In this document: piece by piece, positions 17,943 to 44,029 of the stretch | Position numbering within the stretch: position 1 is the first letter of the stretch | Layout of the letters: every line of letters begins with the position of its first letter | NCBI GenBank assembly: GCA_964416765.1 | Contig: CAYQEU010000002.1 | Span: 144,877 to 188,905, forward strand | DNA from: an uncultured Candidatus Saccharibacteria bacterium | Lineage (GTDB): Bacteria; Patescibacteriota; Doudnabacteria; UBA920 | Direction of reading: 5' to 3' | Length of the DNA: 44,029 nucleotides | The notes under the pieces: generated by a model | Database searches by the model: none | Seen by the model: the letters and a program-made list of their open reading frames with translations, nothing else | What the model was told of the DNA's origin: nothing | Program-made: the position numbers and the translations under genes

Positions 17943-18018
17943 GTTATATAGCACCGGAAGAAACTTTTATTTTACGGGTGCGATTTAATAACTGCTATTG
18001 AGTATTAAGCCATTTTTG

Positions 18019-25315: not shown

Positions 25316-25361
25316 CCCTCCTCTATATATAATCCAACCACTAATCAACTACTAACCAACC

Positions 25362-29495: not shown

Positions 29496-31022
29496 CTAGG
29501 CTCGCGCCTGGTCTTTTGTTTTTTCTATTGTGAAGTAAGAAATAACCGCGGCGACATAACACATGACCGCCATTATTACCATGGCCCAGCGGAACCCGTG
29601 GAGAAACGATTCCTTAACCGCCATTTGCGCCGCTTGGTGCTCGGTTTGGTTTAGCTCGGCGGGAATAGTCAGTCCGGACATTTTGTCTTTTTGTAGAAGG
29701 AGCTGCTGTTTGCCAGCTTCACTAATCGACGACCCTTGCACTTTATGTTCAAACTGGGTTTGGAACAGTGACAAAACCACCATCCCCATAATGGCTATAG
29801 CCATCAATCCCGCCACACGGGAAACGGCATTGTTGGCGCCGGAAGCGGCGCCAGAATAAGCTGGTGGCACCTTTAATGCTGACTTGGTTAAAGGCGCGAT
29901 CAGTGTTGCCATGCCGAGCCCGAATAGAATTTCAATTGGCAAGAAAGTCACCCAATAGTTGGCATGAGCTGATGGCAACGCCAGCAAGGCGAATGACGTG
30001 CCAACAATTAGGGGCGCCAGGATCATCATAGGACGCGCGCCATATTCATCGGCAAATTTACCGCCTAGACCGGAGAAGAAAGTAATAATCAGGATGTCCG
30101 GCAGAAGTGCTAAACCGGTGATGCTCGGGGAGTAGCCCTGTACTTGCTGGAAATTTAATGTGAGCAAAAAAATCATTCCTGCCAGGCCAAAGTAAACCAA
30201 CAAAGTAACTAGATTCGAGCCAAGTACTGTAGGCACGGAAAATATGTTTAATGGCAGGAGAGGGGACTTGCTTTTCTTTTGTACCAATCCAAAAGCAATT
30301 AGACTCAGTAAACCAGCTCCGACGGGGAGCCAAACCATGGTGTTGCTCCAACCCAGTCCCGGCGCTTTGATTAACCCATAGGTAAGCCCGGCAAGGCCAA
30401 GAATAATTAGCAGGGTATGGCTGAAATGGACATTCTCGGAACGCTGTTCCGTGTTGGCGGGAACAAACTGCCAACTGCAAAATAAGGCGATAAGGCCAAC
30501 CGGTACGTTGATAAGGAAGATGGAGGGCCAGCCAAAGTGCTGTACCAGGAAGCCTCCAGCCAGAGGTCCCATCGCGGAAATAGCGCCGCCCAAACCAGCC
30601 CAGATCCCAATGGCTTTACCCCGGCCACTTTCCCCGAAAGAGGTATTGATGATCGCCAGACTTTGCGGGATCATTAAGGCCGCGGCCGCCCCCTGAAGAA
30701 TTTGGAACGTCGCCAGTTGCCCCACATTTTGGGCGAGGCTGGAAGCGAGCGAGGTGCAGACAAAAAATACAATGCCAATGTTAAAGATGCGCTTTCTCCC
30801 AAAACGGTCACCTAATGACCCGCTAATTAACAGGAGCGATGCGAGGGACAGGCTGTACCCTGTCAGTATCCATTGCAGGCCTCCGACGGTGGCGCCGAAT
30901 TTTGCCTGGATTGTGGGTAAAGCAATGTTGGTGGTAGACGTGTCTAAAAACGCCAGCCCGCTGGCAAGAATTGTTGTCAGCAGAATCAGTCGTCCGGCAC
31001 TGGTTTTGGTTGAGTATTCCAT
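29496..31022 (-). CDS. MFS transporter, DHA2 (EmrB/QacA) family
   Basis: FLDTSTTNIALPTI, motif A GSLGDRFGRKR, WPSIFLINVPVG, about 14 TM segments. Confidence 0.93.
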   Translation of the reverse strand: MEYSTKTSAGRLILLTTILASGLAFLDTSTTNIALPTIQAKFGATVGGLQWILTGYSLSLASLLLISGSLGDRFGRKRIFNIGIVFFVCTSLASSLAQNVGQLATFQILQGAAAALMIPQSLAIINTSFGESGRGKAIGIWAGLGGAISAMGPLAGGFLVQHFGWPSIFLINVPVGLIALFCSWQFVPANTEQRSENVHFSHTLLIILGLAGLTYGLIKAPGLGWSNTMVWLPVGAGLLSLIAFGLVQKKSKSPLLPLNIFSVPTVLGSNLVTLLVYFGLAGMIFLLTLNFQQVQGYSPSITGLALLPDILIITFFSGLGGKFADEYGARPMMILAPLIVGTSFALLALPSAHANYWVTFLPIEILFGLGMATLIAPLTKSALKVPPAYSGAASGANNAVSRVAGLMAIAIMGMVVLSLFQTQFEHKVQGSSISEAGKQQLLLQKDKMSGLTIPAELNQTEHQAAQMAVKESFLHGFRWAMVIMAVMCYVAAVISYFTIEKTKDQARA

Positions 31023-31023
31023 T

Positions 31024-33186
31024 TTAGCCTACAGGCCAATTCTCAATAATGAGGTATTGGTGGGTTACTAATTTGTTTTGGTATAACTTCTGCCAAATTT
31101 CCTCGGTAATAAATGGCATGAAAGGGTGAAGAAGTTTTAGGGTGATAATGAGCTGGTGGAGCAGGATCTTTTTTGTGTTGTCAGCAAGCTTTTCGTCCTG
31201 CATTTGCCCCTTGCTTTTTTCAATATAGACATCAGCCAGTTCGTGCCAGGTAAACTGGTAAGCTTCCTGCGCTGCTTCATGCAGCCGGAACCCGTTCAGG
31301 TGCTCAGTTACAGCCCGCACAGTTCCGTTGAGTTTATCCAGAATATATTTATCATCTTCGGTTATCGCCTCAAATTGGTAGTCGCTTTGCTCCACATTGG
31401 ACATAATGAACCGAGCGATGTTCCAAAGCTTGTTTGCGAAATGTTTCATCCCCTTTATTTTTTCTTCGGCCAGAGGGATATCGTTGCCGGCCGCGGTGGA
31501 GAATACCAGAGCAAACCGCAGGGCGTCGGTGCCATATGTATCTATTACCCCGAGCGGGTCAACAACGTTGCCTTTGCTTTTGCTCATCTTTTGCCGGTCT
31601 TTGTCGCGAACCAGACCGTGGAGGAAAACGTTTTCAAACGGTGCTTTGCCGGTGCGGTAGTAGGACAGCATAACCATGCGGGCTACCCAGAAGAACAGAA
31701 TATCCCACCCCGTTTCCATTACGGAAGTAGGGAAGTAGGTGTCCATGTCCGAGCTTCCTTTGGCCATCAATGTCGCGTAAGGCCACTGCCCAGAAGAGAA
31801 CCAGGTATCGAAGGTGTCAGGGTCTTTTTCCAAATTAGCCCCGGCGCATCTAGGGCAAGCTGCGATGGTGTCGTCGGTATCCACTATAATTTCAAAACAA
31901 CCTTGGCAGTATTTAACGGGGATGGGGATGCCCCACCAAATCTGGCGAGAGATAGGCCAGTCACGAATATTGTCCATCCAGTGCATGAAAGTTTTTTCAA
32001 ACCTGTCCGAAAGGATTTTTACCTCGCCATTGTTGACCGCGCTAACCGCCATATCGCGCAGGGACGGCCGTCCGTCCGGCAGAGGTTTGGTCATCGCGAT
32101 ATACCATTGCGGGATAACGATTGGTTCAATAATAGTGTTGCATTTGTAGCACAGCTGGACATTGTGCTTGTAATTGTCTTCAGTTTTTACCAGGAGTCCC
32201 TTACTTTGCAGTTTCTCCACGATAGCCGGTCGGGCTTTTTTGATATGCATGCCAGCAAATTCCCCCGCGACCGGCAAAAGCTTGTCGTTCTTGTCGATGA
32301 TCTGTTCCATGTCCAATCCGTGGCGCTGGGCGATTTCAAAGTCAGTCGCGTCATGCCAGGGAGTAATGGTCATGGCGCCAGTACCGAATTCCATGTCTAT
32401 GGCCGCGTCCTTAATAATAGTGGCGGTAACGGGTCCATTAATCCATTCCAGTTCAATTTTTTGCCCGTCCTGGTATTCAGCGTATCGCTTGTCATCCGGA
32501 TGAACCACTACATATTTATCGCCGAACTTGGTTTCCGGCCGCGCCGTTCCAATAACGAAGGGGCCGTACTGCAGGTAATAAAATGGGTCTTCCCGCTCTT
32601 CGTATTTGGTTTCCAAATCAGACAGCGCGGTTTGGTGACGGGGACACCAGTTGCAGATGCGGTCGCCGCGGTAAACCAACCCGTCTTCATACATTTTGCG
32701 GAAAGTCTCATAAACTACTTTGACCACTTCCGGATCAAGCGTAAAGGTGTTGCGTGACCAGTCTGCTGACGCGCCCATCCTTTTAATCCCGTTTTCCGAA
32801 ATGTGCTTGTTGTTCTGCACGAAGTCCCAAACTTCTTTGTAGAAATCTTCGCGTTCCATGGTCAGGCGTGTCCGGTCTTCCTTTTCCAGTTTCTTTTCGA
32901 ATACCACCTGGGTTTCAAATCCCGCGTGATCGGTACCAGGGATCCACAGCGCGCGCTTTCCGTTCATGCGCTGGTATCGAATCAAAATATCCTCAATGGT
33001 CAGGCCCAAAGCATGGCCCACGTGCAAAGGCGCGTTCGCGTTTGGCGGCGGCATGACAATTGTGTAACTTTCCTTGTCTGCCGCGTCAGGCAAATTATCC
33101 GGGTTAAAGTATCCGGATTCTTCCCACATTTTGTAAATGCGGCTTTCTACGTCACTGGCGTTGTAGGATTTTTCTAGTTCTATCAT
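31024..33186 (-). CDS. valS: valine--tRNA ligase, 720-aa form without the C-terminal coiled coil
   Basis: MPPPNANAPLHVGHA, PGTDHAG, WPISRQIWWG, DPDTFDTWFSSG, KMSKSKGN, DALRFAL. Start taken at 33186 (MIELEKSY). Confidence 0.97.
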   Translation of the reverse strand: MIELEKSYNASDVESRIYKMWEESGYFNPDNLPDAADKESYTIVMPPPNANAPLHVGHALGLTIEDILIRYQRMNGKRALWIPGTDHAGFETQVVFEKKLEKEDRTRLTMEREDFYKEVWDFVQNNKHISENGIKRMGASADWSRNTFTLDPEVVKVVYETFRKMYEDGLVYRGDRICNWCPRHQTALSDLETKYEEREDPFYYLQYGPFVIGTARPETKFGDKYVVVHPDDKRYAEYQDGQKIELEWINGPVTATIIKDAAIDMEFGTGAMTITPWHDATDFEIAQRHGLDMEQIIDKNDKLLPVAGEFAGMHIKKARPAIVEKLQSKGLLVKTEDNYKHNVQLCYKCNTIIEPIVIPQWYIAMTKPLPDGRPSLRDMAVSAVNNGEVKILSDRFEKTFMHWMDNIRDWPISRQIWWGIPIPVKYCQGCFEIIVDTDDTIAACPRCAGANLEKDPDTFDTWFSSGQWPYATLMAKGSSDMDTYFPTSVMETGWDILFFWVARMVMLSYYRTGKAPFENVFLHGLVRDKDRQKMSKSKGNVVDPLGVIDTYGTDALRFALVFSTAAGNDIPLAEEKIKGMKHFANKLWNIARFIMSNVEQSDYQFEAITEDDKYILDKLNGTVRAVTEHLNGFRLHEAAQEAYQFTWHELADVYIEKSKGQMQDEKLADNTKKILLHQLIITLKLLHPFMPFITEEIWQKLYQNKLVTHQYLIIENWPVG

Positions 33187-33196
33187 AGTGTTGGTT

Positions 33197-33392
33197 AAAA
33201 ATAAAAACACCCAGAAAGAGTGTTCAAGAGCCCGCACTATATATAGCGGCGGACGGTACCATCTTGATTGCCGCCCAAGTACTTATGACGGCCTTAATTG
33301 TGCTGCTAACGGGCAGCCCCGGCGGGTTCTACTCTCGCTAAATTCCGGTGCGATTTCTTCCCGCGCCCCTGTGGTGACAGCCACAGGATCGG
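33197..33392 (-). ncRNA. T-box riboswitch (ultrashort Stem I, class II-like fold) with Val specifier GUC
   Basis: In order on the minus strand: Stem I CCUGUGG-cuGUCa-CCACAGG; Stem II with GAAGAA/AGUAGAA internal loop; Stem IIA GCUGC-CCGUUA-GCAGC; Stem III GCCGUC..GGCGGC; antiterminator UCAAGA-[UGGUACC]-GUCCGC...GCGGGC-UCUUGA; then a hairpin and U-tract, directly upstream of valS. Confidence 0.9.
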
Positions 33393-33406
33393 CTAAACTT
33401 GAGCGT

Positions 33407-33435
33407 ATTATATGCCAAAATAGCCCAAAAGTAAA
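33407..33435 (-). promoter_or_regulatory. sigma70 promoter of the T-box/valS leader
   Basis: Minus strand TTTACT (33435-30), 17 bp, TATAAT (33412-07), right after the tsaD stop codon. Confidence 0.75.
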
Positions 33436-33436
33436 G

Positions 33437-34489
33437 CTATCTAAGCTCCCACGCCGGATCAGCCTTAACCTTGTCCAAACGCGCTGGTTTTGCCCCGCCG
33501 CGCAGGTTAAAGTAAGCGGCTATGGCAATCATGGCCGCGTTGTCGGTACACAGCGCGAATGGCGGTACCGTGAAAGTCATTTTGTTTGCATTGGCATCCT
33601 TTTCCAGACGAGCGCGCAGTACACGGTTGGCGGCAACCCCTCCCGCCAGGGCAATTGTCTTGCATGCATACAACTTTGCCGCGCGCAAAGCTTTTTGTGC
33701 GAGCACGTCCACGGCCGCTTGTTCAAAAGAATGGGCGATATCGGCCTTAAGTTTGGGGGTCAGTCTTTTTTGCGCCTTAACATAGTTAGCCACTGCGGTT
33801 TTCAATCCGGAAAACGAGAAATTGTAATTCTTTTGGCTTAGCATGGGGCGTGGGAAATTTATGGACTCCGACCCTTGCAGAGCCAGTTTGCTAATCTCCG
33901 GCCCACCAGGATAGGGGAGTCCCAAAACGCGGGCAACTTTATCGAACGCTTCCCCAACCGCGTCGTCCACGGTATTCCCAATAACCTTAAAGTGGTAGTA
34001 GTCTTTCATGAGCAATAGCATGGTGTGGCCGCCGCTCACTACTACGGCCAAAGCAGGGAATTGTATTTTAGCGTCACCGCCAAAAGCGGAGTACAGGTGC
34101 CCGGCCATATGGTTGGTGGGAAGAAGGGGAACGCCGCTGGCGTAAGAAAGGCCTTTGGCGAATTCCACGCCCACGACCAAAGATACAACCAATCCGGGAC
34201 CGGAAGTAACGGCGATGTAATCCAAACCGTCCAGGCCAACATTCGCCTGTTCCAAAGCCAAGCTCACAGCGGGCATAATGTTTTGCAGATGGGCCCGTGC
34301 CGCTACTTCGGGAACCACTCCGCCGGTCTTCCGGTGTAGCGGTATCTGCGACTTCACCACCGAAGATTTTATGGTAAAATCGGGCTTAATTGAGCCTAAT
34401 TCACCTACTAAAACACTAGCCGCGGTTTCGTCGCAGCTAGTTTCGATTCCGAGTATTGTAACGGTTTCTCTGGATTTAGGTGTTGCCAT
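33437..34489 (-). CDS. tsaD: tRNA t6A transferase TsaD
   Basis: ILGIETSCDETAA, GGVVPEVAARAH, VTSGPGL, HMAGH, VSGGHT, DDAVGEAFDK, FSFSGLKTA, LAGGVAAN, CTDNAAMIA. Start taken at 34489 (MATPKSRE). Confidence 0.97.
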   Translation of the reverse strand: MATPKSRETVTILGIETSCDETAASVLVGELGSIKPDFTIKSSVVKSQIPLHRKTGGVVPEVAARAHLQNIMPAVSLALEQANVGLDGLDYIAVTSGPGLVVSLVVGVEFAKGLSYASGVPLLPTNHMAGHLYSAFGGDAKIQFPALAVVVSGGHTMLLLMKDYYHFKVIGNTVDDAVGEAFDKVARVLGLPYPGGPEISKLALQGSESINFPRPMLSQKNYNFSFSGLKTAVANYVKAQKRLTPKLKADIAHSFEQAAVDVLAQKALRAAKLYACKTIALAGGVAANRVLRARLEKDANANKMTFTVPPFALCTDNAAMIAIAAYFNLRGGAKPARLDKVKADPAWELR

Positions 34490-35174
34490 TTTGTCTTTCA
34501 GAATTTGATTCGTTAGTGATTTCCGCCTCACGGCGATCGGAGGCATCAGAATGATTCGGTACTGGATGACTTTTCTTTTCATCTTCTCCTTCCGCTTCTT
34601 CACGGTCATTCTTTCTCCGTTTCTTCATCCACCGCGCCAGAACCATTAAGAGTAGTGAAGCGAGCAACGCGGCCGTGGTCCCCAGCGCCGTAATTTTGGT
34701 TAAGTCACTAATCCTGTTCTCCACTTCACGCAATGAGCGCGCGACTAATACAAACCCTTTTTGCTGGCCGTTGTCGAACCGAACCACTACCGCTGCCTGT
34801 CTTACCCCTTCTTTTGGCTGCCAGGTAAAGCGGTTTTGCCCGGTTTTACGGGCGGCCTCAAACACACCGGTGGGAGGATCAACCGGCTTGCCATCAACTT
34901 TGGCGGAAGTCTGGATGGGCTTGCCACTGTCATCGTAAACCCCAATATTTAAAGAAAGGGTTTTATCTATATCCACGCTCAAGCTCTGGGGAACGAGGTT
35001 GGCAACCGGGAGACCTTTATTTAGGGCTGTTGCCGCGTCTTCTGCAATCTGGATTTGCTGGTCATTGGCGGACATGCGGTAGTTTTGCTGGACCGCGACG
35101 TACGCAGTACCACTTAAAATGATGATAGTTGCCGCCAGTGGCAACCATTTCCATAAGATTTTTTTGATGTGCAT
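34476..35174 (-). CDS. two-TM membrane protein with a Cache/PDC-like extracytoplasmic domain and no signalling output domain
   Basis: TM, about 130-aa external domain (IGVYDDSGKPIQTS...GFVLVARSLREVE), TM, then a charged low-complexity tail; no HAMP, HisKA or HATPase. Confidence 0.7.
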   Translation of the reverse strand: MHIKKILWKWLPLAATIIILSGTAYVAVQQNYRMSANDQQIQIAEDAATALNKGLPVANLVPQSLSVDIDKTLSLNIGVYDDSGKPIQTSAKVDGKPVDPPTGVFEAARKTGQNRFTWQPKEGVRQAAVVVRFDNGQQKGFVLVARSLREVENRISDLTKITALGTTAALLASLLLMVLARWMKKRRKNDREEAEGEDEKKSHPVPNHSDASDRREAEITNESNSERQNGNT

Positions 35175-35241
35175 AACTTTAGTAGATTAACTTTAATAAT
35201 CAAGGTAAACTGTAAGAGTTGTAGAGTAAGTATACACTTTC

Positions 35242-35270
35242 TAGACAGATAGCTGAAATTATGCTATAAT
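35242..35270 (+). promoter_or_regulatory. strong sigma70 promoter of the surface-protein cluster
   Basis: TAGACA (35242-47), 17 bp, TATAAT (35265-70), with an extended TG. Confidence 0.75.
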
Positions 35271-35293
35271 ATATGTACATTTAATTTTAGTAA

Positions 35294-36397
35294 ATGAAAC
35301 CAAAACAAATTCACCATAAAATTGCTTGGGTAACGGCCACTATAATGATGGCGTCCGTTTTGCTCATGCCTTTCTCTGAGGCCCATGCCGCCCAGATCAC
35401 CAGCCTTTCCGATACTCTTTCCCGTTTAAAGGATTCGGTGAACGCCAACCATGAGTTATTTATGGTTTTGCCTGGCGGTATTGCCGCCGGTAAGGCCCTG
35501 ACCCTTACCTTTTCGGGTTTTGTGGGTTCCAGCGTAAACGCCATCGTGTTTGGCGACGTGGACTTCGCTACCGGCAGCTCGGGCACCTGTTCCAGCGCCA
35601 CCTACACTGAGCAAACCCTTGCCGGTTCTCCCTCGGGTGCCACTTGGGGTGTTTCTGCGGGTTCATCCGCGATTGTAATTACCTCCGGTACTGGTACTTC
35701 TACAGCCGGTAACTGTGTCCGCGTCAGGATTGGTACCAACGCCACCACTGGTGGAACCGGTACCCACCAAATTACCAATGGAACCGCTGCCACTGACCAT
35801 ACCGTTGTAGCTTCCACCAACATTACTTCACCGGATTCCGGCACCTTGGATATTGATATCATCACCGATGACCAAGTTACCATTTCCGCTACCGTAACCC
35901 CGACCATTACTTTCACTATCGACACGAACTCAATTAGCTTTGGTACTTTGAGCTCCTCGACCGGGCGATGGGCCACTTCCGGCGGCGGCGCTAACGCTAC
36001 CGCGGCCACCCTCCCAAGCGCTGGCAACACCTTAACAGTTGCCACCAACGCGGCGAGCGGGTATGTCCTTACTTATAACGGCGCGACCCTGACTTCAGGT
36101 GGTGGCGCTACCATTACCGCGACTTCCATTTCCAGCGATAGCGACGGTGCACCGGGTAGTTCACAGTTCGCCATGACGGCAAGTACTAGCGGTGCTGGTT
36201 CGGTAACTGCCGGTTATGCCCGCAGCACTAACAGTAGCTGGAACTTTGTCCCCTCGACCACTACCACTTTACTTACCAACGGTGCGCCAACCAACACTGA
36301 AACCATTACTATTTCCTACTTGGCAAACATTCCGGGTGCCCAGGCTGCCGGTGCGTACTCAACAACCCTTACTTACATAGCCACTGGAACATTCTAG
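35294..36397 (+). CDS. secreted Thr/Ser/Gly-rich beta protein with a WxL/pilin-like C-terminal domain
   Basis: Signal peptide ending AHA; Cys pair; C-terminal domain SISFGTL...TLTVATNAASGY...GAYSTTLTYIATGTF; no membrane anchor. The CDS is secure; the family label is inference. Confidence 0.75.
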   Translation: MKPKQIHHKIAWVTATIMMASVLLMPFSEAHAAQITSLSDTLSRLKDSVNANHELFMVLPGGIAAGKALTLTFSGFVGSSVNAIVFGDVDFATGSSGTCSSATYTEQTLAGSPSGATWGVSAGSSAIVITSGTGTSTAGNCVRVRIGTNATTGGTGTHQITNGTAATDHTVVASTNITSPDSGTLDIDIITDDQVTISATVTPTITFTIDTNSISFGTLSSSTGRWATSGGGANATAATLPSAGNTLTVATNAASGYVLTYNGATLTSGGGATITATSISSDSDGAPGSSQFAMTASTSGAGSVTAGYARSTNSSWNFVPSTTTTLLTNGAPTNTETITISYLANIPGAQAAGAYSTTLTYIATGTF

Positions 36398-36402
36398 CAA
36401 CG

Positions 36403-37449
36403 ATGCAATTTAATAGTGCCTTTCGTAAATCCTTACACCTAAACACATCAGTTTTTACTGGTGTGTTTGTTTTTTGCGCTTTATTTATTGGGCTTTTTGC
36501 CCAATCGGCCCAGGCTCTCACCGTGAACCCGCGCCTGGAATACGACGCTGACCCGGGTTCGACTATCCATTCCACCATCCAGATCCTCAATGATGAGCGA
36601 CAGACCCGTACGTTCTACCTACGCAGTGAAAACTTCAATTCTGAAGACGAAGCAGGTACCCCAAGCTTTACCACTCGTCAGGAAGATCTGGCTACCTGGA
36701 TTAAGACCTCGGACGTTATCACGCTGGGACCGGGTCAGGCCATGAACTTGCCTCTTGAAATCGCGGTGCCGAAAAACGCGGAACCCGGCGGGCATTATGC
36801 CGCGGTATTTTTCCTGAGTCAGCCGCCTACGTCCGACAAGTCACAAAGCGATGTGGGAATTGAATCCCGCCTCGGCAGCCTGATTTTGCTCCGTGTCAGC
36901 GGGGATTTTGTTCAGGACGCTAGCATTTTGGAATTTAACACTACCGGTGGCAAAAAGTTTTTTACCGGTTTGCCCATCCAGTTTTACTACCGGTTCCAAA
37001 ACACTGGTGACGACCATCAAAAGCCGCTCGGTGATATTGTAATCAAAGATATTTTTGGCCGAACCGTAAAAATAATTCCGGCCAATACCAATGACGGAAG
37101 TGTTTTGCCAAAAAGCATCCGCCGGTTTGTCTCGGTCTGGACGGAGCGCAAAGGCCCGCTAAACCAGGGGGCTGTCATGGACATGCCAGAAACTCCAAAG
37201 CTTAAATTTTGGGACGCCGCGAAATACGAATGGCATAATTTCGCTTTCGGCCGTTATACCGCCACGCTCAAAGTGGTTTATGGAACTAAACAGCTAAAGA
37301 GCGACCGCGCTGAGATGGTGTTTTACATCATTCCCTGGCAACTTCTATGCATTCTCATACCGGCAGGTTTGATCCTGCTGGTACTCCTTCGTTACGGAAT
37401 CAAGTACTACAACCGTTATATCGTCAGTCGTTCCCAGCGCGGAAAATAG
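36403..37449 (+). CDS. DUF916/DUF3324 (WxLIP)-like membrane-anchored protein 1
   Basis: Signal peptide; VPKNAEPGGHYAAVF, FQNTG....PLGDI, VLPKSIRRF, FGRYTA; C-terminal TM and basic tail. Confidence 0.75.
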   Translation: MQFNSAFRKSLHLNTSVFTGVFVFCALFIGLFAQSAQALTVNPRLEYDADPGSTIHSTIQILNDERQTRTFYLRSENFNSEDEAGTPSFTTRQEDLATWIKTSDVITLGPGQAMNLPLEIAVPKNAEPGGHYAAVFFLSQPPTSDKSQSDVGIESRLGSLILLRVSGDFVQDASILEFNTTGGKKFFTGLPIQFYYRFQNTGDDHQKPLGDIVIKDIFGRTVKIIPANTNDGSVLPKSIRRFVSVWTERKGPLNQGAVMDMPETPKLKFWDAAKYEWHNFAFGRYTATLKVVYGTKQLKSDRAEMVFYIIPWQLLCILIPAGLILLVLLRYGIKYYNRYIVSRSQRGK

Positions 37450-37460
37450 CCGCCGCGGCG

Positions 37461-37469
37461 TGATATAAT
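37461..37469 (+). promoter_or_regulatory. internal extended -10 promoter, probable leaderless transcript
   Basis: TG-A-TATAAT, then 6 nt (GACATT), then ATG 37476. Confidence 0.65.
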
Positions 37470-37475
37470 GACATT

Positions 37476-38594
37476 ATGAAAACAAAGGTTTTTGCTCGTG
37501 TTTTAATAATGATTATGGCGCTGTCCATCCCGGGCATCGCGCTTGCGCAAACCCTCTCGAGCCCTAATTATAAAATTGAAGATCCGACCATAGACACCGG
37601 GGGCGGGGAACTTTCCAACTCCGCCAACTTCCAGTCGCGTGGTTCCCTCGGGGATGTCGCTGACGACGGCAGCAACTCCAGCTTGTTCAAAGTATTCGCC
37701 GGATTTTTCTTGCCCGCCTACCCGGGAATACCCGGTACCCCGACTCTGACCAATACCGGTGGCACGCTATATAACTCCCTCGATTTCGTGGTCAACAAAG
37801 GCAACGGCCAGCAGGATGACACGACTTACGCTATCGCGATTTCATCCGATAACTTTGCCACTACCTACTTCATCCAGAACGACGATACTCTGGGCACCAG
37901 CGAAGCATGGCAGACCTACACCAACTGGGGCGGTGTTAGCGGCGAGCGAGTGACTGGCCTTTCTCCCAGCACTACATACAAGATCAAAGTGAAAGCCAGC
38001 TTCGGCAGCGGCAGTAACGCGGCCGATTCTGAAACTGGTTATTCCGACGTTGCCACCGCCACAACCGCGGCTCCCAACCTGGTCATTGTTTTCTCGGGAG
38101 TCTCCAGCGGGACCACCATTGGCGGGGTGACCACCACGACTACTTCCAGCACCAACTCGATTAGCTACGGCGCGCTATCAATTAACTCACCCTTAACTTC
38201 AGCCCACCAAGTTACGGTTACCACTAATGCCGTGGCCGGCTACACCACGACCCTACAGGATGACGGCGAACTCCGTACTACTGGAGGTTCCCAGATTAAC
38301 CCGATTACATCCTCTAACGCGTCACCAGGTACATGGAATGCGGCCGGTACCGTTACCTCGGGACGGTTCGGTTACCACACCACAGACGCGACTCTTTGCA
38401 CGGGTACAGGCGGTCGTTTTTCTTCCAATGACACTTACGCCGCCATGACCACGTCCCCGCTGGAAGTTGCTTGCAACACTGGCCCGGTCACCAGCGAAAC
38501 CACGACCGTGATTTTTAAGCTTGAAATTGGCAGCCTTCAGGCTAACGGCAGCTATGCCAACATTGCTACTTACATAACAACCGCGCAGTTTTAA
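37476..38594 (+). CDS. secreted protein with an FN3-like segment and a WxL/pilin-like C-terminal domain
   Basis: Signal peptide ending ALA; GLSPSTTYKIKVKA (FN3-like); C-terminal SISYGAL...VTVTTNAVAGY...GSYANIATYITTAQF, paralogous to 35294..36397. Confidence 0.75.
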   Translation: MKTKVFARVLIMIMALSIPGIALAQTLSSPNYKIEDPTIDTGGGELSNSANFQSRGSLGDVADDGSNSSLFKVFAGFFLPAYPGIPGTPTLTNTGGTLYNSLDFVVNKGNGQQDDTTYAIAISSDNFATTYFIQNDDTLGTSEAWQTYTNWGGVSGERVTGLSPSTTYKIKVKASFGSGSNAADSETGYSDVATATTAAPNLVIVFSGVSSGTTIGGVTTTTTSSTNSISYGALSINSPLTSAHQVTVTTNAVAGYTTTLQDDGELRTTGGSQINPITSSNASPGTWNAAGTVTSGRFGYHTTDATLCTGTGGRFSSNDTYAAMTTSPLEVACNTGPVTSETTTVIFKLEIGSLQANGSYANIATYITTAQF

Positions 38595-39583
38595 TGAAAA
38601 AATATATACTCAGCTTAATTGGTTTGCTTGCGGTATGCGTCGCGCCTTTTTCTTACGCCGCCCCAGCCCGGAGCCAGTCCGCTGACCAAACTTCGACACC
38701 GCAGGTTCTACAAGTTCATGGTTTGGGGATCGACCCGTTTCTCATTGAAGCGGATGTTGTTGCGGGACAGGCCAGCGAGTACACAATTACCCTCACCAAC
38801 ACCACGGACCAACCGCTTAGTTTTGAAACCAGCATCAATGACTTCACTACCAATGGCACCAGCGGCCAGCCGCTGTTTCTTCCCAGCGACAAACAAAGTG
38901 ATCCCAAGTATTCGCTAAGCGCTTGGGTTAAGGTTACTGAGCAGCCTCAGTTCACCATTGCACCCCGAGCGCAAACCAAGATCAAATTCACTATTACCCC
39001 GCCGAGCGACGCCGAAGTGGGAACCCACTATGGGGGATTGCTGTTTGGCCAGCCGGAACGGCGCGCTCAGGCCGGACAGGAAACAGTAGTGCAAAACAAA
39101 GTTGGAACCATCATTTTGGCGCGGCTCGGGAAAGCCAACGAGCAGGGGACCATCAGCGGCATTACCACGGACAAGCGCGTCTACCAGCAGTCGCCCATAA
39201 ATTTCACGGTAACATTCAACAACTACGGGAACGTTCATAGCAAGCCCAAAGGCGACATTTACCTAAAAAATATTTTTGGCCAGGAAGTAGCGGACCTTCA
39301 GGTTAACCGGGACGCCCAGATTATCTTACCGGCCACCCAACGCTCTTTTGACGTTTCTTGGCGGCCGCAACTTGCCTTTGGAAGGTACACCGCCGAAGCA
39401 GTGATGTATTTCGGAAACCCGAAACTGGAGACCCGCGCCACCGTGTCTTTTTGGGTTATTCCGGTGCGTTCACTCCTAATTTTGGCCGGTTCTGCGCTCA
39501 TAGCGCTTTTGTTCCTTTATGTTATAATTAAGCGGTATAATAGGTTCATTATTAACCGGTCCCGCTCCCGTAAAAGCGAGTAA
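38594..39583 (+). CDS. DUF916/DUF3324 (WxLIP)-like membrane-anchored protein 2
   Basis: PPSDAEVGTHYGGLLF, FNNYGNVHSKPKGDI, ILPATQRSF, FGRYTA; C-terminal TM and basic tail; TAATG overlap with the upstream gene. Confidence 0.75.
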   Translation: MKKYILSLIGLLAVCVAPFSYAAPARSQSADQTSTPQVLQVHGLGIDPFLIEADVVAGQASEYTITLTNTTDQPLSFETSINDFTTNGTSGQPLFLPSDKQSDPKYSLSAWVKVTEQPQFTIAPRAQTKIKFTITPPSDAEVGTHYGGLLFGQPERRAQAGQETVVQNKVGTIILARLGKANEQGTISGITTDKRVYQQSPINFTVTFNNYGNVHSKPKGDIYLKNIFGQEVADLQVNRDAQIILPATQRSFDVSWRPQLAFGRYTAEAVMYFGNPKLETRATVSFWVIPVRSLLILAGSALIALLFLYVIIKRYNRFIINRSRSRKSE

Positions 39584-39589
39584 ATAAAT

Positions 39590-40609
39590 ATGAAAAGACT
39601 TTTTCTCCGGTATAGGGCCCTGGTAGGTTTGATTTTTACCGCTTCAGCCCTTCTCTTTCCTTCACATTTAGCCCACGCTACCACCATGTCTCCAACCCGT
39701 TTGGAGCTTGATGGCGACCCGGGCAAGACCGCGCAAACCACCATCACTGTATATAATGATGAGAAGGTTACGCGGACTTTTTATATCAGCGCGGTTCGGT
39801 TTGAAACAAAGAATGAAACTGGCGAACCGGACTTTGTTTTGGATGACAAGACAGGCTTGGTCAGTTGGATGCATTTGCCGAACACTATTCAGGTTGCCCC
39901 TCTGACGTATTACGATATCAACATCCCGATTGAAGTACCCAAGAACGCCGCGCCGGGCGGTTATTTCGCCGCCGTGTTTGCCAGCATCATCCCGCCGGGA
40001 GCCCAAGGCAATACCCCGGTATCGCTTAAGACGGATGTGGGCACTCTCGTACTGTTCCGCGTCAATGGAGATTTCGCGAAAGAAGATTCACTGCTCGAAT
40101 TTGATACCCTTAACCACAAGTATTGGTACGCCAACTTGCCGGTGGAATTCTATTTCAGGTTCCAAAACTCCGGAGCCGACCGGGCACAGCCGCTTGGTGA
40201 TATCACAATCCATAATTTGCTGGGTGGAATCGCCAAAATTATTACTGCCAATAAAGGTGCGGGCAATGTATTGCCTCAGAGTATTCGCCGGTTTGAGAGC
40301 GCGTGGGTAAACAGCGGGGGAGACCGGGTGGAACAGCATGTTGGAAAAGTGGAATACCCGCAGTTTAACGGCTATTGGTCCCACGTAAAATATGAATGGC
40401 AGAATTTCGCGTTCGGTCGTTACAGTGCCGACCTGCGAGTGACCATTAACAATGATTCCAGCCGCACTCACGCCAAAAGCATTGTCTTTTGGGTGGTGCC
40501 GTGGCATTTGCTCCTGTTAATTCTTGCCGGACTGGCCGTGCTATTCGTGGCGGCTGTTTTGGTAGCCCTTATCGTGCTTCGCCTGTTTGGTGGGGGACGC
40601 CGCCGGTAG
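39590..40609 (+). CDS. DUF916/DUF3324 (WxLIP)-like membrane-anchored protein 3
   Basis: VPKNAAPGGYFAAVF, FQNSG...QPLGDI, VLPQSIRRF, FGRYSA, FWVVPW; C-terminal TM and RRR tail. Confidence 0.75.
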   Translation: MKRLFLRYRALVGLIFTASALLFPSHLAHATTMSPTRLELDGDPGKTAQTTITVYNDEKVTRTFYISAVRFETKNETGEPDFVLDDKTGLVSWMHLPNTIQVAPLTYYDINIPIEVPKNAAPGGYFAAVFASIIPPGAQGNTPVSLKTDVGTLVLFRVNGDFAKEDSLLEFDTLNHKYWYANLPVEFYFRFQNSGADRAQPLGDITIHNLLGGIAKIITANKGAGNVLPQSIRRFESAWVNSGGDRVEQHVGKVEYPQFNGYWSHVKYEWQNFAFGRYSADLRVTINNDSSRTHAKSIVFWVVPWHLLLLILAGLAVLFVAAVLVALIVLRLFGGGRRR

Positions 40610-40645
40610 AGTAGATAGAGCAAAAGCCTAATATTTAAGTAAGCG

Positions 40646-40673
40646 ATAGGGCCCTGTGTCGGGCCCTATTTTT
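40646..40673 (+). terminator. terminator of the WxL-like cluster
   Basis: ATAGGGCCC-tgtgtc-GGGCCCTAT then TTTT. Confidence 0.8.
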
Positions 40674-40674
40674 G

Positions 40675-40703
40675 TTGACATTTTGGTCAATTTCTGCTAT
40701 ACT
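40675..40703 (+). promoter_or_regulatory. sigma70 promoter of the HTH / giant-protein unit
   Basis: TTGACA (40675-80), 17 bp, TATACT (40698-703), with an extended TG. Confidence 0.8.
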
Positions 40704-40716
40704 ATAAATAAGGTAA

Positions 40717-40752
40717 GTTTTGTTAAGTTAAATTACATTAACTTAACAAAAC
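40717..40752. repeat. perfect 15-bp inverted repeat just downstream of the promoter (operator or leader hairpin)
   Basis: GTTTTGTTAAGTTAA-attaca-TTAACTTAACAAAAC. Confidence 0.8.
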
Positions 40753-40923
40753 CCAACAAAAAAGTCGAAACAAAAACACAATTTAAGCCCTATTTGCCGA
40801 AAGTACCAAAATTAGTACTTTAAGCAACAAAACAAAGGCTTAACATAAGCTTTTTCTGTTTTTAGGCCCAAAATCAGCCTAGGAATGCAAAGGCAAAACA
40901 AAAATAAAATTAAAACCAAAGAT

Positions 40924-41142
40924 ATGCAATACGAACCCGATTTTTCGGAATTGCTAACGATCAAAGAGGCTGCCAAGCTGATCAACGTCCACCCGAACAC
41001 CCTGCGCAACTGGGAGCGGGAAGGGAAGATTCAGGCTGTCCGCATTGGCACGCGTCGTGATCGCCGCTACCCGAAAAGCCTCATTTGGCAGTTAGTCAGC
41101 ATGCCGGTAATGGTGCCGGTACAACCGAACCTCGCAGTCTAA
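40924..41142 (+). CDS. small stand-alone MerR/excisionase-type HTH DNA-binding protein (72 aa)
   Basis: LLTIKEAAKLINVHPNTLRNWEREGKIQAVRIGTRRDRRY. Start taken at 40924. Confidence 0.85.
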   Translation: MQYEPDFSELLTIKEAAKLINVHPNTLRNWEREGKIQAVRIGTRRDRRYPKSLIWQLVSMPVMVPVQPNLAV

Positions 41143-41163
41143 AGACTGGTAGGTTTTTTGTTT
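41128..41163 (+). terminator. terminator/attenuator-like hairpin with the HTH stop codon in its loop
   Basis: AACCT-cg-CAGTC-taaa-GACTG-gt-AGGTT followed by TTTTGTTT. Confidence 0.5.
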
Positions 41164-41205
41164 GCGCTCAAAACCGGCGCGTAAGAAATAAAAATAAAAT
41201 TTGAG

Positions 41206-44029
41206 ATGATAGGCAAGTTAATTAACCGAATATTTGCGTACAAAAAGTACGGAAGAACCGGAGTCCTAAACAGTGGACTGCTGGTTGTTTCGCTCTTTGT
41301 GTACGCAATGGTTTTTGCCGCGGTTTCGGTGTACGGCTTAGGCGCCAACACCGAATCAGCCCAGGCGTCGGTTACTAAGTTTATCCAGTTCCAGGGCAAG
41401 TTGACCAACAACAACGCTTCCGCCACCAACGTGGCAAATGGGACTTACGCTTTCGAATTCAAAATGTACACCGCGTCCAGCGGGGGAGTCGCGGTATGGA
41501 CCGAAACGTTTGACCAACCGAGTGGCGCTTGTGCCAAGTTGACCGTAACCAATGGCGTGTTTAACGCCAAGCTTGGAACATGTAACACTTCGCTGCCAGA
41601 CTTCACAGGTGGCAGTATGTACATTTCAGTTAACTTCAATCCTGGTGCCGGATACGACGGTGAAATGTCACCGCGCAAACAAATCGGCGCCTCAGTTTAC
41701 TCATTGGTTGCCAACGGTGTTTCCGGCGACGGCGCCGTAAACACAACCAACTCTTCCTCCACTGCCTTGACTGTGGCCAAGAGCGGCGTTAACTACGCTT
41801 TGCAGGTTGATACTTCGGCCGCTTCCGCCGCGACTGGCTTGAAGGTGACTTCCGCGGCTGCCGCATCTGGATTAGCATTATCCGTGATTTCTTCAGGGAC
41901 AAATGAAAACCTCACGATTGATGCTAAAGGGAGCGGGACTATTTCCATCGGTGGAACTTCCACAGGGAATACTTTATTCGGCGGTGGGTATGGTTCAACG
42001 GGTGTGTCTATTTCCAGTTCAGGAAACATACAAGCAAATGGAAATCTGACGGTAGATAACTCGGTAATTGTTCCAAACATGACCGGATTACTTTCAATTG
42101 GTAACTATGGCACCATCTCTGAAACTGGCGGTGGGTGGGCATACATCCAGGGTAATAATATAAAAGCGGATCCTAGTGTTAATAATAAACTATACAAGTC
42201 TGGTGCAGCTGGTGACCCGGCTCAGTACATAGCGATGCGTTACGATCGTGGATTGTACTTTGCCACTGGTATTGGAGGCGGCGACCCGGTTGGTACTCAG
42301 TATAATGACGATGTGAACGTGCGTTTGGCCTTGGGCTTATCAGGCAACGTTGGCATTGGCGGCACTATTACAAACTTTACTACTTTTGCCGGCGCAAGCT
42401 TAGTCATAAGCAGCGGTAACATCGGTATAGGTGACATTACCCCGGCCGCTCTCTTGACCGTAGGTAGTGGCGATCTTTTCCAAGTTAATTCCTCAGGTGC
42501 CATTGCCGCGGCTACCGGGATTACTTCTTCCGGAACCATTACCTTCTCCGGCCTGGGAGGTGGCGGAACCCAATGTGTAAATGTCAACAATACCGGTACA
42601 TTGGGAACAACTGGTTGCGGAGGGAGCGTGCGGTTAGATCAAATTACTGCCGCAACTGCGACAAATTCAATCAATAGTGCTGATTTTGCCCAGACTTGGG
42701 CATGGAATAGCCTTTCATCCAACAGTGCTTTGACTTTGTCTTCAAACTCCACGGCGGCCGCTTCAAACAGTCAAACTTTACTGAATGTATCTTTGTCAGG
42801 TGCTAATGGGACCAGTACTCAAACTACGTATGGGGCTCAATTTAGCAATACTCATACGGGAAGTTCGTCCACCAACATTGCTGCCTACTTTAATGCTTCA
42901 GGGGGAACCAACAACTACGCCGCAATATTTAACAGCGGCTATGTTGGTATTGGTACTGTCACCCCTACCAATGTAGTAGACCTGGTTGGCGGCAGCCTAC
43001 TATCGGGCCAGAATGCCCTTAATGTGACGGGTACTCTGAATTCCACCAATGCGGCGCAGACAGGGGTGAATGTAAATATTACTAGCGCTGGAAGCGGAGC
43101 CTCGGCCAACCAAACCGGGATTAACCTCAGTCTTGCCGCTGGATACACAGGTTCAGCTTTGACCGCCGGTGGCGCGTTCACCAACCTGATAGCAGGTACG
43201 GGGAATGATTTTACTGGCGCTTCGTATAATGCCGGACTGTTTGGCCAAGCCCGGGGAACGACAACTGGTGACAACGTTGGCTTACAAGGTATCGCCCGTG
43301 GTGGCGACTTAAACATTGGTGAAAACGGTAGAGCCACAATTGCAAAAAACGGGGCTACTAATATCGGTGTATTGGGACATGCCTTGAATACCGGAACAAC
43401 ACCGATTCAAATTGGTGGTTACTTTGGTTTGCAAAGCGGCAAGCCAACATTTGAATCCGGAGCTTTGATAGCTGATAATGGGTCAACCACAGATCCAATT
43501 TTCTTGCTGCGCGATAATGGCACTAAAGTTTTCAGTGTCATAGATGGCGGTAACGTCGGCATCGGTGATACCACTCCCGCAGCCCTTCTTACTGTAGGTA
43601 ACGGCGACCTATTCCAGGTAAACTCGTCTGGAGCCATTGCCGCTGCTACTGGTATTACCTCTTCAGGAACCATTAATTTCTCAACACTTTCTGCCTCAAG
43701 CGCTGTATACACAGATGGTTCCAAGAATCTGACTTCTACCGCCCCAACCTCCGGTACTATCGGCTATTGGTCCAGGACCGGTACTACCTTGAGCCCGGCT
43801 ACGGCAGGGGACAACGTCACTACCACGGGTAACATCTCCACCACTTCTTCAGGAACCATTACTTCGGCAGCTCTTCTTACCGCTTCCAATGGTTTAACTT
43901 TGACTACTGGTGCCCTTAACTTAACCGGAACATCAGGATCCATTGCCCTGACAGGATATGGAACCACATCTATTACTTCCACCACCACCACCAGCGACGC
44001 CAATATTTTGGCTGACTCTTCCTTTGCTC
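41206..44029 (+). CDS. giant Gly/Ser/Thr/Ala/Asn-rich surface protein (adhesin/tail-fibre-like), 3' truncated by the window, >941 aa; not in the ORF track
   Basis: Frame translated by hand and open from ATG 41206 to the edge; N-terminal hydrophobic segment; FIQFQGKLTN...GTYAFEFKMY...VWTET...NGVFN..LG...EMSPR domain; GNVGIG/GYVGIG repeats. Confidence 0.9.
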   Translation, partial: MIGKLINRIFAYKKYGRTGVLNSGLLVVSLFVYAMVFAAVSVYGLGANTESAQASVTKFIQFQGKLTNNNASATNVANGTYAFEFKMYTASSGGVAVWTETFDQPSGACAKLTVTNGVFNAKLGTCNTSLPDFTGGSMYISVNFNPGAGYDGEMSPRKQIGASVYSLVANGVSGDGAVNTTNSSSTALTVAKSGVNYALQVDTSAASAATGLKVTSAAAASGLALSVISSGTNENLTIDAKGSGTISIGGTSTGNTLFGGGYGSTGVSISSSGNIQANGNLTVDNSVIVPNMTGLLSIGNYGTISETGGGWAYIQGNNIKADPSVNNKLYKSGAAGDPAQYIAMRYDRGLYFATGIGGGDPVGTQYNDDVNVRLALGLSGNVGIGGTITNFTTFAGASLVISSGNIGIGDITPAALLTVGSGDLFQVNSSGAIAAATGITSSGTITFSGLGGGGTQCVNVNNTGTLGTTGCGGSVRLDQITAATATNSINSADFAQTWAWNSLSSNSALTLSSNSTAAASNSQTLLNVSLSGANGTSTQTTYGAQFSNTHTGSSSTNIAAYFNASGGTNNYAAIFNSGYVGIGTVTPTNVVDLVGGSLLSGQNALNVTGTLNSTNAAQTGVNVNITSAGSGASANQTGINLSLAAGYTGSALTAGGAFTNLIAGTGNDFTGASYNAGLFGQARGTTTGDNVGLQGIARGGDLNIGENGRATIAKNGATNIGVLGHALNTGTTPIQIGGYFGLQSGKPTFESGALIADNGSTTDPIFLLRDNGTKVFSVIDGGNVGIGDTTPAALLTVGNGDLFQVNSSGAIAAATGITSSGTINFSTLSASSAVYTDGSKNLTSTAPTSGTIGYWSRTGTTLSPATAGDNVTTTGNISTTSSGTITSAALLTASNGLTLTTGALNLTGTSGSIALTGYGTTSITSTTTTSDANILADSSFA
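42415..42546 (+). repeat. internal 44-codon repeat, copy 1, in the giant protein
   Basis: GNIGIGDITPAALLTVGSGDLFQVNSSGAIAAATGITSSGTITF; 40/44 aa identical to copy 2. Confidence 0.9.
43549..43680 (+). repeat. internal 44-codon repeat, copy 2, in the giant protein
   Basis: GNVGIGDTTPAALLTVGNGDLFQVNSSGAIAAATGITSSGTINF. Confidence 0.9.

Follow-up and report, generated by a model that had tools for sequence, protein, structure and literature searches.

The 44,029-nt stretch of DNA analysed here (the window; contig CAYQEU010000002.1 of an uncultured Candidatus Saccharibacteria bacterium of Doudnabacteria-like lineage) carries a five-gene locus at positions 35294–40609, which encodes two secreted subunits (A and B) and three membrane-anchored partners (P1, P2, and P3). 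The locus is quite probably a Pam-type pilus operon, that is, a system with which monoderm bacteria of the candidate phyla radiation (CPR)/Patescibacteria build filaments by donor-strand exchange, with the aid of chaperones and without an usher. This assignment is favored because subunit A passes the NCBIfam pilin model NF058581, subunit B is homologous to A and begins with a PamT-like segment, and the fold of P1, the conservation of the linker in A, and the synteny of related loci all fit it. The gene structure, the paralogy, the family membership of A, the predicted folds, and the synteny were all observed in this analysis.

The Pam pilus has been described in Candidatus Mycosynbacter amalyticus, where cryo-electron microscopy (cryo-EM) resolved the donor-strand-exchange pilins PamA and PamB; the linker of each fills the groove in the C-terminal domain of its neighbor, and linker and groove are the most conserved parts (bioRxiv 10.64898/2026.03.03.709456). 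Other products of the pam operon are the FimC/PapD-like chaperones PamC and PamD, each with a transmembrane (TM) helix at its C-terminus, the linker-less tip PamT, PamE, and PamR, an RbmA-like anchor with a TM helix that is described as a terminator/anchor with an extra N-terminal donor strand (bioRxiv 10.64898/2026.03.03.709456). According to the authors, there is no trans-envelope machinery and no usher, and membrane-anchored chaperones are enough for assembly of the fiber, which is linear and not coiled; their preprint stresses Saccharimonadia and Microgenomatia and names no other classes (bioRxiv 10.64898/2026.03.03.709456). An original prediction, made from the sequence of the window, had regarded the locus as an undescribed multi-gene system. 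In this respect it has been overtaken, since the Pam system was defined by the March 2026 preprint (bioRxiv 10.64898/2026.03.03.709456) and by the NCBIfam models NF058579 and NF058581 (release 20, June 2026). Its proposal of an usher-less, membrane-tethered chaperone pathway building a filament for host attachment has fared better, as its homolog, the Pam pilus, has been shown or is proposed to have these properties and A scores above the NF058581 cutoff.

The components of the locus, with positions in the window, are as follows:

35242–35270, forward strand: promoter-like site TAGACA-17-TATAAT with a TG extension (extended -10), 24 nt 5′ of A.
35294–36397, forward strand: subunit A, an open reading frame (ORF) of 367 aa, probably the major pilin.
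35855–35920, forward strand: codons of the A linker, residues 188–209, IITDDQVTISATVTPTITFTID, with alternating hydrophobic residues; candidate donor strand.
36403–37449, forward strand: P1, an ORF of 348 aa, membrane-anchored and chaperone-like, paired with A.
37476–38594, forward strand: subunit B, an ORF of 372 aa, probable tip or minor subunit.
38594–39583, forward strand: P2, an ORF of 329 aa, membrane-anchored chaperone-like paralog, paired with B.
39590–40609, forward strand: P3, an ORF of 339 aa, third membrane-anchored paralog, closest to P1.
40645–40670, forward strand: terminator-like hairpin with a 10-bp stem, six GC pairs, and a T-rich tail, 36 nt past the P3 stop codon.

The coordinates of the five genes were compared with the ORFs of the 44-kb window, and the ORFs lie on the forward strand at exactly the positions, and in the order A, P1, B, P2, P3, that had been predicted. 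The successive intergenic gaps are 5, 26, −1, and 6 nt. The promoter-like site agrees with the consensus at 11 of 12 positions and has the joint best score in the scan of 34400–41400, as a consensus match only, and the hairpin is the top-listed terminator-like site of the scanned region. As these two signals flank the five genes, the genes look like one transcription unit. Signal-like N-termini are present in all five products. In line with the original prediction, a domain search of the window detected neither a sortase nor an usher (PF00577) among ORFs of at least 150 aa, and LPxTG was found neither in the five proteins nor in window ORFs longer than 150 aa. No third pilin-type gene was found in the window, and an Rfam search of it returned no RNA families.

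Residues 235–367 of subunit A match NF058581 (CPR_Pam_pilin_C, “Pam pilus system pilin subunit”) with 58.3 bits (E 9e-16), the curated cutoff being 55 bits, and the model also recognizes each of the 52 sampled homologs of A, with E reaching 8e-24. The protein comprises a signal peptide (~1–32), an N-terminal beta-sandwich (~33–187), a linker (~188–209), and a Pam-type C-terminal domain (~210–367). The AlphaFold2 (AF2) monomer model shows two beta-rich domains, with a predicted local distance difference test score (pLDDT) of 91.9 and a predicted template modeling score (pTM) of 0.57. Residues 188–204 are not assigned to a strand in this model, and the pLDDT minimum (~71) lies at 191–200. The most conserved 12-mer of the A family, SATVTPTITFTI (residues 198–209), falls within the linker, and the C-terminal strand GAYSTTLTYIAT ranks second in conservation. 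Alternating hydrophobic residues, together with a low-confidence stretch at 191–200 just upstream of the conserved 12-mer, are what is expected of a strand that becomes ordered only in the groove of a neighboring subunit. By analogy with PamA and PamB, linker 188–209 is proposed as the donor strand of A.

Subunit B consists of a signal, a PamT-like N-terminal segment (~25–82), a fibronectin type III (FN3) domain (~85–190), a Thr-rich and poorly conserved linker, and a Pam-type C-terminal domain (~246–372) with a conserved cysteine pair (Cys308–Cys333). Its residues 4–82 match the first 82 positions of the PamT model NF058579 with 42 bits (E 6e-11), and 28 of 33 B orthologs match this model likewise, while Pam_pilin_C is matched by 11 of the 33 (E < 0.01). 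The central FN3 domain resembles PDB 9w18 (E 3e-5). A and B have their C-terminal ~130 aa in common (30% identity, E 6e-5), and hhalign relates the A family to the B family with a probability of 97.9% (E 4e-13) over 238 aligned columns; in the profile alignment, B has a 10-residue gap opposite the DQVTISATVT of A. Within the B family, FN3 is the most conserved part and the linker region is among the least conserved. Given that B has no A-type linker residues, that its linker is poorly conserved, and that its FN3 domain is best conserved, B would act as a strand acceptor only. B would thereby be the tip subunit, presenting the FN3 domain, and A would be the polymerizing subunit. Both proteins had been expected to be secreted and anchorless, with a common C-terminal beta domain, and this is borne out by the hhalign result and by a single N-terminal, signal-like hydrophobic segment in each, with no second hydrophobic segment and no LPxTG in either protein.

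The partners P1, P2, and P3 are paralogs (P1–P3, 39% identity, E 2e-80; P1–P2, 30%, E 3e-36; P2–P3, 26%, E 1e-21). All three begin with a signal-like hydrophobic segment, and the C-terminal membrane helix and basic tail that had been described from the sequence are seen in each as a hydrophobic helix and a basic tail. Four of the five shared motifs listed in the original prediction match by regular expression, and the remaining one, given as F.N.G....P.GDI, is off by one position and should read F.N.G.....P.GDI; the PG form of the first motif holds in the partners, except that P2 has VG for PG. In the AF2 model of P1 (pLDDT 88.2), a signal helix precedes two Ig-like beta-sandwich domains and a long C-terminal TM helix (312–347), and the cytoplasmic tail is RYNRYI. 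Domain 1 contains a low-confidence loop at ~140–156, and directly past this flexible loop the partner family has a conserved block, LGSLILLRVSGD (157–168). By analogy with the G1 strand and Lys112, the chaperone features of PapD, and with the hairpin of the Firmicutes partner protein WxLIP that is predicted to insert into WxL proteins, this block, with its G-x-L-x-L-x-R-V strand, may be the complementing strand of the chaperone. It might dock with the C-terminus of A and B, which is aromatic and invariant (…TYIxTxx[FY]).

The tail motif (K/R)RYN(R/K)(Y/F)I occurs in P1 (37375–37449) and P2 (39520–39583) and not in P3 (40540–40609); among related loci, the tail “YN” is present in 51 of 75 first-position and 19 of 31 second-position chaperones and in none of 17 third-position paralogs. 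The distribution of this cytoplasmic juxtamembrane motif points to an interaction, in the cytoplasm or at the membrane, that was lost from the third paralog. P3 belongs to a divergent subclass and has a longer hydrophobic C-terminus, and it could be either a second or extra chaperone or a terminator/anchor. P2 has ~20 additional residues at the mature N-terminus, which are poorly conserved, and a conserved N-terminal donor-strand extension, the mark of PamR, was found in none of the three partners.

For the neighborhood survey, species-representative genomes were scanned with the partner profile, which yielded 76 loci, most of them from metagenome-assembled genomes labeled CPR/Patescibacteria. 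The labels include Doudnabacteria, Nomurabacteria, Paceibacterota, Falkowbacteria, Peregrinibacteria, Gracilibacteria, and Minisyncoccales, and many read “uncultured Ca. Saccharibacteria”. A pilin-family gene adjoins a chaperone-family gene in 76 of 76 loci, so that the co-occurrence of the two families across genomes, named as a check in the original prediction, was found throughout. In 75 of 76 loci, the gene after A is P1-type (median gap 24 nt), and the arrangement is not due to chance. The chaperone-family gene 3′ of B is always P2-type, with no gene after B in three of the 35 loci that have B. The common architectures are A-A-P1 (24 loci), A-P1-B-P2 (15), A-P1 (12), and A-P1-B-P2 with a third paralog (~12), and the third paralog is optional, occurring in about a quarter of the loci. 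From this spread, the core module is a pilin plus a chaperone, and the window holds an extended form. Five loci with the A-P1-B-P2 architecture are labeled Doudnabacteria, and the RpoB of the window is 79–90% identical to proteins from contigs of metagenome-assembled genomes, one of them labeled Ca. Doudnabacteria; these labels of relatives point to a Doudnabacteria-like patescibacterium. The partner family is very large, its representative clusters numbering 13,522 (E ≤ 1e-3), 7,051 (E ≤ 1e-10), or 1,841 (E ≤ 1e-30).

Some survey loci (L022, L031, L032, L035, L038, L042, L043, L045, L052, L057, L059, and L039) are labeled “uncultured Gammaproteobacteria”, “Pseudomonadales”, or “Rikenella microfusus”, for which we suspect mislabeled bins or contamination rather than occurrence outside the CPR. 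At many loci, the additional upstream “A” is 500–1550 aa long and has the Pam-type C-terminal domain at its end. Such proteins, of 1335–1551 aa (L022, L040, L054, L057, and L061), ~965 aa (L053 and L067), or ~500 aa (L024, L025, L027, L028, L034, and L036), are encoded just 5′ of the A-type pilin gene. Domains of carbohydrate-binding or NIDO type occur in some of them: the large protein of L024 contains CHB_HEX_C, Fn3_assoc, and dockerin-like domains, that of L053 has a NIDO-like segment, and Pfam returned nothing for most of the large proteins bearing the C-terminal domain at other loci. It is plausible that these proteins are tip adhesins with variable binding modules.

Besides the Pam pilus, the partners recall the WxL/Csc clusters of Firmicutes, which combine WxL proteins with WxLIP, a DUF916-DUF3324-TM protein (PMC10599100; PDB 9i1y, 9i25). 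A strand or hairpin of WxLIP is predicted to fill out the sandwich of the WxL protein, and WxL proteins are described as platforms bound to peptidoglycan rather than as polymers (PMC10599100). Read in this way, the locus would encode a non-filament surface complex, in which each WxLIP-like partner holds one subunit by strand insertion and displays its binding domains. In a Foldseek search, the best PDB match of P1 is indeed the Enterococcus faecium WxLIP (EfmWxLIP1) bound to a long WxL protein (9i25_C; E 8e-11, TM-score 0.49 on target length), and the alignment of ~297 columns covers both domains. EfmWxLIP1 is also the sole match, a weak one (E 0.04), of the partner-family profile among 177,635 PDB sequences. 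P2 passes PF06030 (WxLIP_PGBD, DUF916) with 43.6 bits (E 3.7e-11; gathering threshold 27.3) and matches fn3_5 as well (E 6.6e-7), whereas PF06030 reaches only E 0.18 in P1 and does not match P3; it is matched by 17 of 53 partner-family members (E < 0.01). The predicted strand donation of WxLIP speaks for the same reading, and a filament in the present lineage is suggested by analogy. P1 further matches Vibrio cholerae RbmA (E 1e-10, second-best) and the chaperones Caf1M (E 1e-8, TM-score on target length 0.40–0.45), CfaA (E 1e-7), and CsuC (E 2e-7). The likeness of the partners to WxLIP and PapD-type chaperones that had been proposed is thus recovered by fold and, for P2, by PF06030.

However, the subunits do not fit a WxL/Csc-like complex. 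Neither A nor B matches the WxL domain PF13731 at E ≤ 1, the W-x-L motif is absent from both, and no WxL chain appears among the top 50 Foldseek matches of A. The C-terminal domain of A belongs to a family of filament pilins verified by cryo-EM, and the conserved, alternating-hydrophobic linker is explained by strand donation, not by one-to-one display. The locus encodes no LPxTG partner, and DUF3324 (PF11797) is matched by none of P1–P3 at E ≤ 1 and by none of the 53 family members at E ≤ 0.01, so that the DUF3324 half of the DUF916-DUF3324 layout, which the original prediction gives for the Firmicutes proteins, has no sequence match here. The WxL label of the original prediction fits the partners only, the subunits not being WxL proteins, and as an account of the whole locus a WxL/Csc-like complex is unlikely.

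We consider it very improbable that A and B are sortase-independent, MSCRAMM-like Ig-fold adhesins or form an S-layer-like lattice, present as monomers or two-dimensional arrays with P1–P3 as RbmA-like matrix or scaffold proteins instead of chaperones. Points in favor of this reading are the weak likeness of the A fold to SdrG/ClfA/ClfB and to the group B Streptococcus pilus backbone protein (E 1e-4 to 1e-3, TM-score <0.3), the rank of RbmA among the matches of P1, and a Thr/Ser/Gly/Ala share of 56% in A and 48% in B. However, such low TM-scores are typical of generic Ig-fold likeness, and the one-to-one pairing of subunit and partner genes and the match to the Pam pilin domain fit a chaperone–subunit system better. 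Classical chaperone-usher pili were rejected in view of the missing usher and the monoderm host, sortase pili for want of LPxTG and a sortase, and type IV pili, in spite of a PilB-like ATPase 32 kb off, on the grounds that the subunits have no type IV pilin features.

Several points weigh against a Pam-type pilus operon. A passes the NF058581 cutoff narrowly (58.3 vs. 55 bits), and B, at 42 bits, stands against a PamT equivalog cutoff of 240 bits. P1–P3 match no NCBIfam model, and neither a clear PamR-type anchor with an N-terminal donor strand nor PamE was identified at the locus. The link to the M. amalyticus Pam system runs through NCBIfam models and fold classes. The predicted full-length structure of A has no convincing fold match in the PDB: Foldseek against a PDB copy without PamA and PamB gave only low-TM generic Ig matches (integrins, MSCRAMMs, and Fabs). 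Searches of PDB-chain sequences with A, B, and P1, likewise in copies without PamA and PamB, detected no pilin or chaperone, returning only a spurious adhesin fragment and designed FN3 domains, and nothing for P1; the PapD families PF00345/PF02753 have no sequence match in P1–P3 or the 53 partner-family members. Finally, donor-strand complementation and polymerization of the proteins described here would be carried over from PamA and PamB.

Under the Pam-type assignment, we infer the order of the subunits, their pairing with chaperones, the strands exchanged, and the role of P3, and assembly could proceed as follows. All five products would be exported by Sec, and the C-terminal helix would keep P1–P3 in the cytoplasmic membrane. 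The C-terminal Ig-like domain of each subunit would be one strand short, and the tethered chaperone would insert a capping strand, in all likelihood the conserved G-x-L-x-L-x-R-V past the flexible loop at ~140–156 of chaperone domain 1. B, with its PamT-like N-terminus, its FN3 domain, and no conserved linker strand, would probably be the distal tip and be handled by P2. A would be the major pilin, handled by P1, and the linker SATVTPTITFTI of each incoming A would take the place of the chaperone strand in the C-terminal domain of the subunit before it, with the fiber growing from its membrane base. P3 may serve as an extra chaperone or as the fiber terminator/anchor. The finished filament would reach and attach to the host cell.

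Other genes noted in the window are as follows:

40885–41142, forward strand: an 85-aa MerR/excisionase-type helix-turn-helix (HTH) gene (HTH_17, 1.7e-10; MerR, 1.9e-10), between the hairpin and the giant gene.
41206–44028, forward strand: a giant surface protein of >941 aa, which runs off the window end and has an N-terminal hydrophobic anchor/signal.
1313–2977, forward strand: a PilB/GspE-type ATPase (T2SSE, E 1e-122) with an MshEN domain, 32 kb from the operon.
17998–19560, forward strand: a 520-aa protein with an M23 peptidase domain and FG-GAP repeats.
19666–21651, forward strand: a 661-aa LCAT-like lipase/acyltransferase.

No Pfam domain was found in the giant protein as encoded at 41206–44028. 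Its homologs, which reach ~2300 aa (e.g., L006:9622–13857 and L027:9907–16908), are the direct 3′ neighbors of the operon, on the same strand, in 24 of the 26 loci that contain B and in 0 of the 37 that lack it. The giant protein may be an adhesin used with the pilus or another functional partner, or its place may reflect lineage synteny only. The HTH gene is preceded by a promoter-like site (40675–40703) and has homologs in only two of the 76 loci. The rpoB and rpoC genes lie at 21818–29237, and in 17 related loci the pilus operon is located within 8 kb 3′ of rpoC. The interval between rpoC and the operon (29496–35174), which is also seen in L001, contains a major facilitator superfamily (MFS) transporter gene, valS, tsaD, and the gene of a 232-aa membrane protein with a near-threshold DUF7055 match (26.6 bits vs. 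a cutoff of 27.6). The PilB/GspE-type ATPase makes it probable that the organism has in addition a type IV pilus or competence system unrelated to the operon, and the M23/FG-GAP and LCAT-like proteins are candidates for enzymes with which an episymbiont attacks the envelope of its host.

CPR bacteria make up a large, mainly uncultured share of bacterial diversity and live attached to other cells. Filaments that contact the host are central to this attached lifestyle. The locus suggests that the Pam pilus is not limited to Saccharimonadia and Microgenomatia, and that a compact module occurs in Doudnabacteria-like organisms and many CPR lineages. What is new here is a compact, differently ordered variant of the Pam-type operon in a Doudnabacteria-like lineage and, as indicated by sequence and fold, homology between Pam chaperones and Firmicutes WxLIP. 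The latter was not found in the searchable literature, and the Pam preprint mentions neither WxL nor DUF916. We tentatively suggest, as an idea with a somewhat less than even chance, that Pam chaperones and WxLIP belong to a single ancient superfamily of chaperones that are anchored in the membrane of monoderm bacteria and donate a strand. If so, the WxL/Csc clusters and the Pam pili of CPR bacteria would have diverged from a single chaperone system without an usher, the core form of which would be the compact A-P1(-B-P2-P3) operon, spread across many CPR classes, and the motif-less third paralog and the downstream giant protein could be unrecognized components, for example an anchor and an adhesin. 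The WxLIP link, which extends to enterococci, listeriae, and lactobacilli, could also help to explain the assembly of the surface complexes of WxL proteins, for which roles in virulence and adhesion are implied.

Compared with chaperone-usher pili (Pap/Fim, Caf1, CFA/I, and the archaic Csu), the locus has the two-Ig chaperone fold (Caf1M, CfaA, and CsuC, E 1e-8 to 2e-7), the logic of donor-strand complementation and exchange, subunit and chaperone genes in one operon, and a conserved aromatic subunit C-terminus. In contrast to those systems, it has no usher and no outer membrane, its chaperones are membrane-anchored rather than soluble and have no PapD Pfam match, its proposed donor strand is an internal inter-domain linker instead of an N-terminal extension, and the Pam fiber is linear, not coiled. 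With the WxL/Csc clusters, it shares the partner architecture of a signal, two Ig-like domains, and a C-terminal TM helix, with P2 passing PF06030 and WxLIP as the top fold match of P1; it also shares a partner strand thought to complete the incomplete beta-sandwich of a secreted protein, a monoderm envelope, and several paralogous partners. It differs from them in having subunits without a WxL domain or WxL motifs, partners without a DUF3324 sequence match, no LPxTG protein, and a CPR host, whereas WxL/Csc clusters belong to Lactobacillales/Bacillales.

The M. amalyticus Pam system differs from the locus in its gene content and order, with at least seven pam genes there as opposed to five here in the order pilin-chaperone-pilin-chaperone-chaperone. 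There is no 55-kDa pilin of PamA size and no recognizable PamE or PamR at this locus, B joins the PamT-like N-terminus to FN3 and remains far below the PamT equivalog cutoff, and the chaperones match no NCBIfam model. The lineage is Doudnabacteria-like here as against Saccharimonadia/Microgenomatia there, and within the window the ATP synthase genes are not adjacent to the operon. The two systems have in common a CPR host, Sec-type signals, the lack of an usher or sortase, and the grouping of the genes in one operon. Both have a two-domain pilin with an N-terminal beta-sandwich, a linker that is the most conserved part, and a Pam-type C-terminal domain, seen here in the predicted structure. 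Both operons encode chaperones built from a pair of Ig-like domains and a TM helix at the C-terminus, the fold classes agreeing with PamC/PamD and PamR. A PamT-like N-terminal module, here in B, and an MFS transporter gene nearby complete the likeness. In its mode of working, the locus would resemble a chaperone-usher pilus that does without the usher. Because the locus shares only the chaperone fold and the exchange logic with chaperone-usher pili, and only part of the partner side with WxL/Csc clusters, it is best filed as Pam-type.

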